Shown here one piece after another: positions 497 through 29,404 of a stretch of 64,000 nucleotides of DNA (positions are counted from its first letter, which is position 1; every line of letters begins with the position of its first letter). The notes below the pieces were generated by a model. That model was not told the DNA's origin. It made no database searches and was given only the letters and a program-made list of their open reading frames with translations. The stretch lies in the NCBI GenBank assembly GCA_049303835.1, contig JBAQNN010000003.1:114820-178819 (forward strand), given 5' to 3'. Made by a program: the position numbers and the translations under genes. Origin of the DNA: Minisyncoccia bacterium. Its GTDB lineage: Bacteria > Patescibacteriota > Minisyncoccia > Phycocordibacterales > UBA9973.

Positions 497-540
497 CCCG
501 GGCGAGTGCTTGGAAGCTACTCGACCCAGGCTGTGTGTCT
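497..540 (-). terminator. GC-rich hairpin (cgagt..actcg within gcccgggcgagtgcttggaagctactcgaccc), T-run on the minus strand; terminator of cassette A
   Basis: Inverted repeat directly downstream of the 557..808 minus-strand ORF, followed on that strand by ctgttttaaattt. Confidence 0.5.
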
Positions 541-556
541 GGCTGAGGTTCTATAC

Positions 557-808
557 TCAGCCGTGATGGTCGGAGATGATGTTGGTGACGAGCTTACGCG
601 CCCATGGAGTGGAGGTGATGTCCCTCCCACTCTCAACATCGAGAATCTTCTCGATGTGTTTGTTCCCGTTGATCTCAGCTCGGATGAACTTCTTGGTCTG
701 ATCCAGGTCGTTCCAGAAGAGGTTGATGTCTTCCTCCGAGGGTCTTTCCCCCACGAAAGAAATGACCTCACAACCGTTACCAAAGGTCTGAGCCCAAATT
801 ACTTCCAT
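557..808 (-). CDS. GC-rich cassette A: 83-aa hypothetical protein with no recognisable family
   Basis: ATG preceded by GGAGGT SD at 6-nt spacing; about 55% GC, unlike flanks; followed by a hairpin terminator; the overlapping plus-strand ORF has no SD. Confidence 0.55.
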   Translation of the reverse strand: MEVIWAQTFGNGCEVISFVGERPSEEDINLFWNDLDQTKKFIRAEINGNKHIEKILDVESGRDITSTPWARKLVTNIISDHHG

Positions 809-863
809 TTTCTACCTCCAAAAATACGTTAACACGAGTTAGCAATTCTGTCTAGATTTTATT

Positions 864-1847
864 TTATTCTTCCTCTTCATCCCCGACAGCACCAGATTCA
901 ATATCAGCAATGATTTCCCCTATTTCTCCTTCCATTATTTTGGGAAGATTATGCCATGATTTTTTTATACGGTGATCAGTTACTCTGTCTTGAGAATAAT
1001 TGTAAGTACGAATTTTTTCAGAACGATCACCGGAACCGATTTGCCCTTTACGAATACCGGCATGTTTGGCTGCTTCTTTCTCTTCTTCCAACTGCTGAAG
1101 TTTGGCAGTCAAAATCATCATTGCTTTCTCACGATTGGCGAGCTGGCTTCGTTCATTGGTAGAACGCACATCCAAACCTGTTGGCTTGTGAATAATCCTC
1201 ACAGCTGTTTCAACCTTGTTCACATTTTGTCCACCTTTCCCTCCTGAGCGGGAATATTCCATATCAAAATCCGCCGGATTTATTTGAAAAGTAACTTTTT
1301 TTCTGATTGGCAACACCGCCACAGAAGCGGTAGAGGTGTGCACTCGGCCATTTTTTTCGGTAGCTGGAATTCTTTGTACTCTATGCACCCCTGTCTCATA
1401 ACGCATCTTTTTAAAAACATCCTGTCCTTTTATTTCAAAACTTGCTTCTTTGTATCCATTCAAATCGCTTTTGGACTCATAATTTGTTTTCCATTGCCAA
1501 CCTTGTATCTCAGAGTATCTTTCATACATATGTGCTAGTTCCCAAGCAAAAAGCGAAGCTTCGTCTCCCCCGGCACCGGCGCGTACTTCTAGGACTATCT
1601 CATTTGGCGATTCATTTAGTTTGTCTTCCGCTTCTTTGTCTTTGTCTAAAATGTCTTGTACTTGTTTTTCTATTCTTTCTTTTTCTTCTTGAATAAATTT
1701 TAGTTCCTTCGCAGCCATCTCATGCAAGGTTTCATCACTATCCAACATCTCTCGTACTTCTGCTTCTTCACGTGCTAAACGCAAAAGTTCTCCAGCTAAA
1801 TAACTGGTATTGTGATTTTTCTTAAGTTCTTCAAGATCTAAACTCAT
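864..1847 (-). CDS. prfA: peptide chain release factor 1
   Basis: GGQ motif SGGKGGQNVNK; PxT-type tripeptide (RIPATE) rather than the SPF of RF2; full length 327 aa. Confidence 0.85.
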   Translation of the reverse strand: MSLDLEELKKNHNTSYLAGELLRLAREEAEVREMLDSDETLHEMAAKELKFIQEEKERIEKQVQDILDKDKEAEDKLNESPNEIVLEVRAGAGGDEASLFAWELAHMYERYSEIQGWQWKTNYESKSDLNGYKEASFEIKGQDVFKKMRYETGVHRVQRIPATEKNGRVHTSTASVAVLPIRKKVTFQINPADFDMEYSRSGGKGGQNVNKVETAVRIIHKPTGLDVRSTNERSQLANREKAMMILTAKLQQLEEEKEAAKHAGIRKGQIGSGDRSEKIRTYNYSQDRVTDHRIKKSWHNLPKIMEGEIGEIIADIESGAVGDEEEE

Positions 1848-1855
1848 AAAATTAA

Positions 1856-1939
1856 AAAGCTCCTTGCAATTTTACACTTCTGTGGGGCCCGCCCAGTATT
1901 CTGGGATGGGAGGAAGAATGTAAAATTGCAAGGAGCTTT
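1856..1939. repeat. perfect 21-bp inverted repeat (aaagctccttgcaattttaca / tgtaaaattgcaaggagcttt) around a 42-nt GC-rich spacer that itself contains a cccag/ctggg hairpin
   Basis: Read directly in the sequence between the rpmE stop and the prfA start; compound stem-loop. Confidence 0.7.
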
Positions 1940-1944
1940 GTTCC

Positions 1945-2163
1945 TTATTTCTTGGCTTTTCCTGTTGCAGCTGCTCTTTTCTTGAATCGTTCCACCCGTC
2001 CGGCAGTGTCCATAATCTTTTCATTACCAGTATAAAAAGGATGGCATTGACTGCAGATTTCCATTTTTATTTCAGGCATAGTGGAGCCAACTTCAAAAAT
2101 CGCCCCACAGGCGCAGGTCGCCTTTGTTTTTAAATCATATTTTGGGTGTATATCTTTTTTCAT
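1945..2163 (-). CDS. rpmE: 50S ribosomal protein L31
   Basis: [10 protein letters not shown]-terminus; CxxC...[10 protein letters not shown] zinc ribbon; 72 aa. Confidence 0.9.
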
Positions 2164-27653: not shown

Positions 27654-27742
27654 AAACTTTACTTTTCCCCACTTTCTGATAATGTAGTATCTATATAAGA
27701 TAAATTTTCCCCGCCACATCGGGGTAAGCTAATAAAAAAACT

Positions 27743-28954
27743 ATGCCAAAAATAAACCAGGAAATAGAGAGTTTTGCCCGCATTATGGTCATCGGAATAG
27801 GAGGATCTGGAAAAAATGCAGTCAACCACATGATAAATTCTAAAGTAAAGGGTGTCTCTTTTATTTGTATGAATACTGACACCCAGGACTTACATCATTC
27901 TCTCGCTGAGAAAAAAATTCACATCGGAAAAAACTTAACCAAAGGTCTGGGTGCAGGAATGGACCCAGAAATTGGCAAAAAGGCAGCTGAAGAAACAAAA
28001 TCCGAAATTCAAGATGTCGTAAAAGGAGCGGACATGATATTCCTCGCTTGTGGAATGGGTGGAGGTACCGGCACCGGCGCAGCTCCTATCGTCGCTCGCG
28101 CAGCCAGAGAACAAGGAATTCTCACCGTCGCTGTCACCACCAAGCCTTTCTTTTTTGAAGGAAATCACCGAATGAAAATAGCGGAAAAAGGAATAGAAGA
28201 TCTGGCTAAAGAAGTGGACGCTATAATCATTATCCCAAATGATAAATTACTCCAACTCGCCGAGAAAAATACTAATTTTAAGGATGCTTTCATTAGGTGC
28301 GATGACGTCCTTCGCCAAGCAGTAGAAGGTATCTCCGATCTTATTACTACCCCGGGTGTAATAAATGTGGACTTTGCGGACATCAAGGCGGTTATGGCAA
28401 ATGCTGGAAGTGCTCTCATGGGTATCGGTAGTGCTTCAGGAGAAAAGCGGGCAGAAAAAGCTGCTTTAGCTGCCATTAATTCCCCTTTATTGGAAGTTTC
28501 TATTCATGGAGCCAGAGGAGTACTCTTTGCAATTTCCGGAAGCGACGATTTAACTATCAACGAGATTCAAGAAGCTGCTAAAATAATCACCGAGTCTATT
28601 GATAAAGATGCGAAAGTAATCTTTGGAACTATCCGTGATGAGAAATTAAAAAAGGGAGAAATCAAAGTCACTGTCATCGCTACATCCTTCCCTGCCGATA
28701 TGCCTCGCAAAAGTCTTTTTAGTGGAACAGCGGCGGCCACAAGCCCATTGCTCAAAGATGAACCTGTCGCTGTAGTAAAAAAAGAAATTAACAACAGCTT
28801 CCAAAATGGGAACATGGGCAACAGTGATTTCATCAAGAAAACAGACACAAACACTAACAACCTCATTAAGAAAGAAACCAAGGAAGAAATCATAGAAGAC
28901 GACGGCGATGACTGGAGCGCTGTTCCAGCATTTCTTCGAAGAAATAAGAAATAA
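27743..28954 (+). CDS. ftsZ: cell division protein FtsZ
   Basis: Tubulin signature [13 protein letters not shown]; T7 loop; variable C-terminal tail. Confidence 0.95.
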
Positions 28955-28980
28955 AATAAATTTACAATACAAAAGTTAAA

Positions 28981-29010
28981 GCGGCGCGAACTCGTGAGAG
29001 TCCGCGCCGC
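28981..29010. terminator. GC hairpin (gcggcgcgaactc gtga gagtccgcgccgc) between ftsZ (+) and cassette H (-)
   Basis: About 13-bp stem with one mismatch; bidirectional position. Confidence 0.55.
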
Positions 29011-29035
29011 GGTTGCTTGATGGGCTGATCATGTA

Positions 29036-29350
29036 CTACCAAAACTTGTCGTCGGGGTTCCGCCAGTTCGTCCAGTCATCCTGAACTCCAGCGTCGGTCG
29101 CCATGTAAGCGGCCTTGAACCGAAGATACTCTTCCTCAGTCAGGCCGTGCCGGTCGGGGCCCCAACCACTGAGGTCCATCGAGTGACCGTACTTTCCGTG
29201 CTTGTCCAGGAGATACTCTCGCAGTTCAGGAAATCCCGAGGGATCCCCATTGCGTCGAAATCTGTCGAGAGCAGACTGGGCACCCCAGAGCTGGCTCTTC
29301 GCACGACTGACGCTGTCCTGATTCGCAAAAAAACGACTGGCCTGACTCAT
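29036..29350 (-). CDS. GC-rich cassette H: 104-aa Trp/Asp-rich hypothetical protein
   Basis: GTGAGG SD; about 60% GC; consensus promoter just upstream on the minus strand. Confidence 0.55.
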   Translation of the reverse strand: MSQASRFFANQDSVSRAKSQLWGAQSALDRFRRNGDPSGFPELREYLLDKHGKYGHSMDLSGWGPDRHGLTEEEYLRFKAAYMATDAGVQDDWTNWRNPDDKFW

Positions 29351-29375
29351 AAATTTTCCTCACTTTCTACTTAAT

Positions 29376-29404
29376 ATAGTAGCATATTTTGATGTTATTG
29401 TCAA
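29376..29404 (-). promoter_or_regulatory. sigma70-like promoter on the minus strand: TTGACA, 17 nt, TACTAT
   Basis: Reverse-complement hexamers tgtcaa (29399-29404) and atagta (29376-29381). Confidence 0.5.

Follow-up and report, generated by a model that had tools for sequence, protein, structure and literature searches.

The window analysed here is a 64-kb stretch (positions 114,820 to 178,819 of contig JBAQNN010000003.1) of one genome of a Nomurabacteria-like patescibacterium, which belongs to the Minisyncoccia within the candidate phyla radiation (CPR). Seven compact GC-rich units (A, B, C, E, F, G and H) lie in spacers between conserved genes of this AT-rich sequence, and together they carry nine small orphan open reading frames (ORFs). 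As judged by their sequence features, the nine ORFs are genuine protein-coding genes, and the units are natural and not engineered. Our data lean towards the interpretation that they are accessory genes of the chromosome that resemble phage morons and come and go as whole units, and that their GC-rich codons and Shine-Dalgarno (SD)-led initiation would be actively maintained by selection on expression; we regard this as somewhat probable. The argument for active maintenance is that high GC at third codon positions (GC3) and SD sites both persist in orthologues from AT-rich, SD-less genomes. The mini-genes are fast-evolving, restricted to the lineage and inherited with their flanking genes, and gain and loss also take place as whole ORFs at SD boundaries.

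The seven GC islands were found at the coordinates proposed in the initial annotation, as confirmed by ORF composition and by the GC content of 200-nt windows (0.51-0.60 in the islands, compared to 0.382 for the window as a whole). The nine small ORFs form seven transcription units, six with a single gene and one, unit F, that is a three-gene operon (F1, F2 and F3). ORFs A to H fill the islands, and each island has at least one small ORF. No further units of this kind were observed in the 32-64 kb part of the window. The products had been described as small (42-150 aa), mutually dissimilar and without a recognizable family, and all of this was borne out: protein clustering detected no similarity among the ORFs, and searches of Pfam, PHROGs, NCBIfam and PADLOC with all nine proteins returned nothing above threshold. 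One position had to be corrected, as unit A was said to lie upstream of prfA and is in fact downstream of it, on the same strand and across a gap of 55 nt. For comparison, 80 loci from Paceibacteria and Nomurabacteria relatives were collected in a scan anchored on lysS (LysS identity 92% to 59%, GC 0.30-0.58); single loci are cited below by number, such as L009. The features of the units and of the genes beside them are listed here.

494..533, minus strand: terminator hairpin of unit A, cagcctgggtcgagt...cactcgcccgggctg then tttt (T-run)
557-808, minus strand: ORF A, 83 aa, ORFan; SD TGGAGG at 815-820, 6 nt from the ATG; GC3 0.69
864-1847, minus strand: prfA, on the same strand as ORF A
13540..13567, plus strand: promoter of unit B, TTGACA-16-CATAAT; 11/12 match, the best in 12.5-30.5 kb
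13603-13827, plus strand: ORF B, 74 aa; SD AGGAGG at 13591-13596; GC3 0.71
13833..13865, plus strand: terminator of unit B, 15-bp stem then T-run
13895-14881: rmuC, convergent with ORF C
14891..14922, minus strand: terminator of unit C, between the convergent rmuC and C; 14-nt arms, 93% complementary, with a minus-strand T-run
14952-15404, minus strand: ORF C, 150 aa; SD AGGAGG at 15412-15417; GC3 0.76
15445-15474, minus strand: promoter of unit C, ATAACA-18-TATATT with TG
15501..15573, plus strand: tRNA-Glu(CUC), which decodes GAG; context between units C and E, outside any unit
15581..15608, plus strand: promoter of unit E, TTGTCT-16-TATAAA (TG)
15648-15884, plus strand: ORF E, 78 aa; SD AGGGGG at 15636-15641; GC3 0.72
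about 15886-15932, plus strand: terminator of unit E
22639..22667, plus strand: promoter of unit F, TTGACT-17-TAAAAA; conserved in L009
22696-22959, plus strand: ORF F1, 87 aa; SD AGGAGG at 22676-22681, 14 nt from the ATG; GC3 0.64
22981-23109, plus strand: ORF F2, 42 aa, predicted single-transmembrane peptide; GTG start, own AGGAGG
23106-23348, plus strand: ORF F3, 80 aa, basic; start overlaps the F2 stop (ATGA), own AGGAGG; GC3 0.64
23361..23390, plus strand: terminator hairpin of unit F; 13-nt arms, 100% complementary; kept in L009
25520..25543, minus strand: terminator of unit G, 10-bp stem (9 GC pairs) then T-run
25576-25758, minus strand: ORF G, 60 aa, rich in Pro, Glu and Lys; SD AGGAGG at 25766-25771; GC3 0.75
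25813-25818, minus strand: TTGACA of the unit G promoter (17/18 spacing)
28981..29010, minus strand: terminator of unit H, common to H and the convergent ftsZ; best terminator match in the region
29036-29350, minus strand: ORF H, 104 aa; weak SD GAGG at 29358-29361; GC3 0.66
29376..29404, minus strand: promoter of unit H, TTGACA-17-TACTAT with TG; second-best promoter match, just upstream of the conserved trxB promoter

The nine ORFs have a GC content of 0.50-0.59 and a GC3 of 0.64-0.76. In the 39 large genes of the window the mean GC3 is 0.332 (standard deviation 0.057, maximum 0.49), and the unit ORFs lie 5-7.5 standard deviations above this mean. Uniform GC and codon usage had been named in the initial annotation as the outcome that would speak against it; the GC3 values differ widely, and codon counts also bear out GC-ending codons that it had reported, such as GAG and CTC. 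In terms of single codons, the units and the host genes differ in their use of AAC (0.91 versus 0.27), TAC (0.81 versus 0.25), CTC (0.52 versus 0.11) and TTA (0 versus 0.24), and the GAG share of Glu codons is 0.68 in the units versus 0.25 in host genes. Codon choice in the units is an inversion of host usage that goes beyond a mere shift. The amino acid composition also changes, with Arg, Pro and Val up and Lys and Ile down (units versus host: R 0.069 versus 0.038, K 0.067 versus 0.092, I 0.054 versus 0.078). The tRNA-Glu(CUC) gene between units C and E is present in L009 as well, and its agreement with the GAG bias may be a coincidence.

Promoters and terminators were ranked in a scan of 18 kb (12.5-30.5 kb). 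The two top sigma70-type promoter matches in this region are those of units B and H, and the four top terminator matches are those of H, G, B and E, with G ranking second. As hairpins are also present at A, C and F, the GC hairpin terminator claimed for each module was confirmed, and so were the sigma70-like -35 boxes (TTGACA in B, G and H, TTGACT in F, and TTGTCT in E). The claim that each module has a canonical AGGAGG-type SD holds for eight ORFs, with matches of 6/6 in B, C, F1, F2, F3 and G and of 5/6 in A and E, and fails for H, which has GAGG only. Promoter and SD spacing was verified by script for every unit, and the leaders between -10 box and start codon are 25-40 nt long. The GC enrichment ends at the start codon; the sequence upstream of it has a GC content of 0.24-0.38 and is AT-rich like the host. 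The description of the modules as autonomous expression units fits in that they have their own promoters and terminators, except that no good promoter was found for unit A, which is probably co-transcribed with prfA by read-through.

At the unit borders, neither inverted or direct terminal repeats nor target duplications were found beyond the terminator hairpins. Transposable elements, miniature inverted-repeat transposable elements and insertion sequences were rejected as candidates on the grounds that terminal repeats are missing, the units are unrelated to one another, and each family is found at a single locus. A shared border motif, AGTTCTTWAA, was also considered and judged unconvincing, as it has 4 matches where 0.9 are expected and a count of 4 was also reached in 2 of 100 shuffles.

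In AT-rich genomes, intergenic stretches of high GC are a well-known sign of noncoding RNA (ncRNA), and the islands could in principle be structured ncRNAs in which the ORFs are by-products of GC richness. Long ORFs on both strands would agree with this, as would the high minimum free energy per nucleotide, which ranges from -0.27 to -0.42 kcal/mol/nt in the units (8 of 9 at -0.31 or lower) compared to -0.18 to -0.24 kcal/mol/nt in six of seven controls and -0.31 in the remaining one, an RRM gene. We give this explanation next to no credence. No Rfam family reached its gathering threshold on any island, and the folding z-scores relative to synonymous-codon shuffles were similar in the units (+1.1 to -2.6) and the controls (+0.3 to -2.7). 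In the SD-led frame of every ORF the order is GC3 > GC1 > GC2, a codon periodicity that goes together with correctly spaced SD and ATG, while in the antisense ORFs, which are longer than the unit ORFs, this GC pattern is mirrored and Pfam gave no match. Third-position substitutions dominate between orthologues, and the ratio of nonsynonymous (dN) to synonymous (dS) divergence is low (B 0.13, C 0.15, F3 0.12, H 0.10-0.15). The alignment of ten members of the C family shows protein-like conservation with conservative amino acid replacements. Thermophile-style ncRNA islands were ruled out by the Rfam result, the coding signatures, and the comparison of folding with synonymous shuffles.

The SD sites of the units stand apart from those of the host genes. 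The score for AGGAGG is at most 3/6 in 34 of 38 host genes of the window, and none of 29 well-anchored genes has GGAG, GAGG or AGGA within 15 nt of its start. In seven genes (L25, FBA, exo, rmuC, Gmad2, greA and trxB) a -10-like hexamer ends about 5-7 nt before the ATG; examples are the starts at 4271 (L25), 12808 (exo), 13895 (rmuC), 25463 (greA) and 29440 (trxB). These start regions suggest that leaderless mRNAs may be widespread in the lineage. A survey of SD use that covered the 64 kb of the window and about 20 kb per relative demonstrated that, in the gaps of relatives, an SD of at least 5/6 is present in 42% of 67 GC3-outlier small ORFs and a perfect one in 19%, compared to 4% and 0.3% of the relatives' normal large genes (n = 1018). 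The association between SD and GC3-outlier status has a Fisher odds ratio of 17 (p = 1e-18). Core genes are SD-poor in about 60 related loci whatever their GC content (rho = 0.14, p = 0.30), and because the GC-rich relatives are equally SD-poor, donation by the GC-rich members of the clade does not explain the SD sites of the units. No 16S rRNA gene is present in the window or in the compared loci. The gene called rpsU (25876-26109) encodes a 77-aa basic, S21-like protein that is conserved in relatives; it has no Pfam match at E <= 1e-5 and no SD core upstream.

The GC3 anomaly persists in orthologues. In comparison with L009, dS is 0.7-0.9 for B, C and F3 and 0.36-1.18 for the flanking genes, while dN is 3-15 times higher in the units; for B the values are dN 0.097 and dS 0.72, and for F3, which is 78-84% identical in L009, dN 0.113 and dS 0.93. 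The identity ranks of C across genomes agree with those of murF. In seven genomes the GC3 of C is 0.57-0.76 (0.57-0.71 outside the window) and that of the flanks 0.18-0.46, at dS values up to saturation. ORF H and its homologue in L090 (dN 0.15, dS 1.1-1.6) have a GC3 of 0.63-0.66 versus 0.28-0.38 for the flanks, and in L090 alone the values are 0.63 and 0.28. A two-state amelioration model, though crude, predicts that a GC3 of 0.76 would fall to about 0.40 at a pairwise dS of 1.6 and to about 0.28 at saturation. As GC3 is kept in orthologues after synonymous turnover, the fading signature of a recent import fits the data less well. C, the family with the widest distribution, has the window's highest GC3; if GC3 decayed with age, the lowest value would be expected there.

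The neighborhood of the units is well conserved, with the gene order trxB-ftsZ-ftsA-...-rpsU|greA-lysS|mraZ-rsmH-ftsL-PBP-murF kept in the closest 40 or so relatives. The ftsZ-trxB gap is empty (29-235 nt) in 25 of 31 relatives and the greA-rpsU gap is empty (38-190 nt) in 25 of 34 syntenic relatives, while the lysS-mraZ gap ranges from 127 to 2553 nt. When filled sites were aligned with empty ones, the complete H unit (terminator, ORF, SD and own promoter) was located between the stop codon of ftsZ and the trxB promoter, which is conserved, and the complete G unit between the divergent promoters of greA and rpsU, likewise conserved; both sites have retained their native flanking promoters. 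In unit F, F1 and the second SD form an indel of about 290 nt that is bounded by two copies of AGGAGG and is absent in L009, where the conserved F promoter drives F2 and F3 only.

In L009 and L008, orthologues of B, C, E, F2 and F3 occupy the corresponding positions. The B orthologues lie between exo and rmuC in L009 (84%), L008 and L020, the E orthologue in L009 is reduced to 45 aa by loss of its N-terminal third, and the C gene is intact in L009. C is found in seven distinct genomes and is a neighbor of rmuC in each of them, and the H homologue in L090 is likewise convergent to ftsZ, with a conserved terminator stem. The families are always found at one locus and never elsewhere. The idea that the ORFs are ordinary conserved genes present at the same loci in relatives is thus correct for B, C, E, F2, F3 and H as regards orthology in place, but does not account for the GC3 anomaly that the orthologues keep in every genome examined.

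Two local observations concern variation at these sites. In L010, the closest relative, positions 5292-5640 hold a partial G-like unit (the terminator and the 3' end of the ORF), an N run, and a duplicated 5' end and promoter of greA; this scaffold looks like a collapse of haplotypes with and without the unit, which would correspond to a presence/absence polymorphism in the population. At the rmuC locus, the window and L002 share rmuC at 97% identity, C at 56% and exo at 84%. The RmuC protein is 97-99% identical between the window and L002, L009 and L094, whereas its neighbors are only 56-84% identical, and the RmuC proteins of other relatives are about 50% identical, so that there are seemingly two allele classes; the pattern suggests recombination or the sharing of alleles at rmuC.

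The sharp compositional borders and the textbook consensus promoter, SD and terminator might raise the suspicion of assembly or binning chimeras, contamination, or the engineered inserts that the initial annotation had allowed for. This suspicion can be set aside with near certainty. The genome is an environmental Minisyncoccia metagenome-assembled genome (MAG), in which proteins C and A have identical entries, and in the Logan assembly of SRR28062879 the units A, G and H recur at 100% identity together with the core genes beside them, the H contig matching the window over 2655 nt; since this assembly may share the sample of the MAG, it counts as an independent assembler and not as an independent sample. 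Homologous, naturally diverged units are present in MAGs from unrelated studies and habitats, and the architecture is found across about 30 relatives.

In terms of their products, the mini-genes are orphans of narrow distribution. Homologue searches in large databases were done for A, B, C and H. ORF A had only its self-match among 5.8 billion proteins, H had one homologue (77% identity, in L090), and C had ten, with 52-80% identity and all within the CPR. An exhaustive HMMER search with B found three small homologues; its weak matches to FG-GAP-type repeat proteins were judged to be repeat noise. No relatives of H, C or B were found in IMG/VR, F1 had no exact match on record, and a search of solved structures by sequence gave nothing for A, B, H, F1 or F3. 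A metagenome scan with the C profile returned only four loci, all of them beside rmuC. The AlphaFold (AF2) model of C has a predicted local distance difference test (pLDDT) score of 79 overall and about 90 over residues 40-150; it predicts a membrane helix or anchor, a 49-residue helix and a helical bundle, and it had no fold match in the PDB (best E = 0.97). The H model (pLDDT 58) was too poor for use. Of the predicted products, C would be a helical protein anchored in the membrane and F2 a very small transmembrane peptide, and the other seven would be small proteins that are soluble or disordered. A further family of GC-rich small ORFs (58-60 aa) was seen upstream of C in L002 (3686-3865), L006 (7153-7329) and L008 (7822-8004); in L008 it overlaps the start of C, and it is absent from the window.

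A census of the relatives indicates that the mini-genes are a lineage-wide class. GC3-outlier small ORFs were present in 43 of 76 loci, with six in L037 and four each in L020, L031 and L009, and their 72 proteins fell into 61 clusters, 55 of which are singletons. This census works at the gene level, misses units whose long antisense ORF passes as a large gene (as C and F do in the window), and has at least one false positive (in L047, a fragment of seryl-tRNA synthetase). Individual examples in relatives have the same layout of consensus promoter, SD and terminator. Sliding-window GC islands were tried in the relatives and rejected as too noisy, given that ftsZ and ftsA have GC bumps of their own. 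Some relatives have longer ORFs or a more extreme GC3 in these spacers: L045 has a 221-aa ORF with a GC3 of 0.77 in the ftsZ-trxB gap (3490-4155), L034 has two ORFs with a GC3 of 0.76-0.81 in the lysS-mraZ gap (8747-9552), and L031 has four ORFs with a GC3 of 0.81-0.91.

Elsewhere in the window, a separate integrated element (30635-41100) adjoins tRNA-Ser(CGA) and tRNA-Glu(UUC). It encodes a serine recombinase (30900-32603), a prim-pol (32823-35111), a pol-beta-thumb-like protein, a MarR regulator, and two large AT-rich ORFs without a Pfam match (36320-40344, GC 0.31-0.33), and its composition is host-like or AT-rich, unlike that of the GC-rich mini-genes. The Rfam LOOT RNA motif (RF03000) is present at 52448-52568 on the plus strand, with 62.2 bits compared to a gathering score of 46.4.

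If the units are maintained by selection on expression, as we favor, an AT-rich sigma70-type promoter would produce a 25-40-nt leader with a strong SD (GAGG only in H), followed by the GC3-rich ORF and the GC hairpin terminator. The structured, GC-rich mRNA would need the SD to initiate in a host that starts on unstructured A/U-rich or leaderless mRNAs, its C- and G-ending codons would be read by Watson-Crick pairing, and the mRNA would be intrinsically stable. The mini-genes are probably highly or specially expressed. Several observations weigh against maintenance by selection. The folding of the unit mRNAs is no stronger than that of synonymous shuffles, and the codon bias beyond GC3 is modest (effective number of codons 48.7 versus 53.9 expected). 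Ribosomal-protein and RRM genes have a GC3 of 0.30-0.36 and no GC3 preference, so that translational selection of the ordinary kind leaves no visible trace in this genome. The amino acid shift fits past GC pressure better than purely synonymous selection. Units H, G and A are patchily distributed, and H is missing from relatives that are closer by FtsZ than L090, the only genome sharing it, which fits horizontal spread. In L009, the third positions of C show 16 changes from G or C to A or T and one in the opposite direction by parsimony, an AT-ward drift that resembles decay, although parsimony polarization with a distant outgroup is unreliable, just as the amelioration model above is crude.

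Several of these points lend some weight to horizontal gene transfer into the spacers from a gene pool that is GC-richer, uses SD sites and has not been sampled, be it an organism, a plasmid or a virus. Such an import would have left unfaded donor signatures without any need for selection, and homologous recombination via the conserved flanks would then have passed the units on to related Patescibacteria. Such a transfer would be consistent with three independent foreign-looking signs (codon usage, the amino acid shift and SD use), with the status of whole units as insertions relative to relatives, with the ORFan status of the products, and with the mosaic of rmuC and C alleles. We consider it unlikely on the whole, if far from negligible, because A, B, C and H have no homologue outside AT-rich CPR contexts, H, C and B have no relatives in IMG/VR and none of the nine a PHROG match, each family is confined to a single locus, GC3 persists past a dS of 1 to saturation, and promoters and leaders are AT-rich like the host. 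The nearest correlation of codon usage is with GC-rich Paceibacteria (r = 0.65 and 0.59), and these were rejected as donors: the best r is only 0.65, Pro and Arg usage differs, and their core genes are as SD-poor as those of AT-rich members. None of the sampled genomes matches the codon usage of the units, in which the preference for CCC over CCG and an AGR share of 0.50 are unmatched. The foreign origin proposed in the initial annotation is therefore supported by the alien composition, but a simple recent import is not supported by the orthologues in place, their co-divergence with the flanks, or the large-database searches with A, B, C and H and the viral searches, which found no donor. Foreign origin and selective retention are compatible and do not exclude each other. 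GC-biased gene conversion (gBGC) at recombination hot-spot spacers of naturally competent organisms, where heteroduplex repair would raise GC regardless of function, appears very unlikely. It would agree with the hot-spot behavior of the lysS-mraZ gap, the mosaic rmuC alleles, the joint rise of third-position G and C, the amino acid shift, and the slightly raised GC3 of rmuC, exo, lysS and mraZ (0.40-0.47 versus a mean of 0.33). The sharp stop of GC enrichment at the start codon makes it a weaker rival, as the leader and promoter within the inserted unit have 24-38% GC; conversion also requires a homologous partner, while most units are rare or unique, and the SD association is left unexplained. 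To our knowledge, a GC3 increase of 0.35 far exceeds the effects reported for bacterial gBGC.

The units matter in several ways. The Patescibacteria (CPR) account for much of bacterial diversity and have tiny genomes with many genes of unknown function, and the three signatures (GC-rich codons, strong SD, and consensus promoter and terminator) provide a sequence rule for finding small accessory CPR genes. GC-rich codons that persist against AT pressure oppose the usual pattern of AT-rich, ameliorating ORFans, and the question of whether synonymous composition and initiation mode are selected together becomes testable. Literature searches found no description of such a GC-rich mini-gene class, in agreement with the initial annotation, which knew of no described element of this kind.

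The closest known counterparts are phage morons, which are independent transcription units inserted between conserved phage genes (PMC3594210). Like morons, the units are extra DNA relative to syntenic relatives, with their own promoter and terminator, deviant GC, and usually one small gene of accessory or unknown function. They differ in being chromosomal, between housekeeping genes (ftsZ/trxB, greA/rpsU, lysS/mraZ, exo/rmuC) and not in a phage or prophage, in having no viral relatives (IMG/VR for H, C and B, PHROGs for all nine), and in that several are stably inherited orthologues and not sporadic. As they are chromosomal, we call them moron-like and do not class them as morons. With genomic islets and ORFans they share atypical composition, patchy distribution, lack of homologues, and placement at variable sites among conserved genes. 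In bacteria, ORFans and islands usually have a lower GC content than their host, whereas the units are much GC-richer and their anomaly appears not to fade in orthologues; unlike islets, they are single-gene units with consensus signals and without an integrase, tRNA target or repeats, and unlike the integrated element of the same window (30.9-41 kb), they are not host-like or AT-rich. Integron cassettes are likewise small ORFs, for the most part orphans, with an imperfect hairpin behind each, and they are highly diverse and differ between strains. However, cassettes are promoterless, have attC ends and form arrays next to an integrase, while the units have their own promoters and plain T-run hairpins, have no repeats in common and lie singly at scattered sites. 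The window has no integron integrase, its only recombinase being the serine recombinase (30900-32603) of the separate element; attC core motifs were not specifically searched for.

In Bacteroidia, the anti-SD is sequestered by bS21, bS18 and bS6, and a strong-SD rpsU is translated by ribosomes that lack bS21 (PMC7797042, PMC9976891, PMC13000453). This is the only known case of a few strong-SD genes in an SD-less genome, and in the sequence covered the lineage studied here resembles it in combining SD-less core genes with a small set of strong-SD genes. The likeness raises the possibility of a separate translation regime for the SD-bearing set, in which the GC-rich, SD-led orphan mini-genes would form a large and constantly changing translation class of their own, with consensus promoters and codons decoded by Watson-Crick pairing; its expression would take a separate route of initiation or be limited to certain conditions (such as the presence of a ribosome subpopulation with free anti-SD), and selection for that route would keep the alien composition. 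We regard this as rather improbable. If such a route did exist, it would be a second, independent case of specialized initiation in an SD-poor phylum, and it would extend the single-gene logic of bS21 and rpsU to dozens of accessory genes. The phylum is a different one, the SD genes here are many unrelated orphans and not rpsU, and the Bacteroidia system lacks the GC-rich codon usage. In summary, the units belong to a known kind as accessory moron-like ORFan units, and what is new is the combination of GC-rich ORFans that appear not to ameliorate with a contrast in SD use between these genes and their host.

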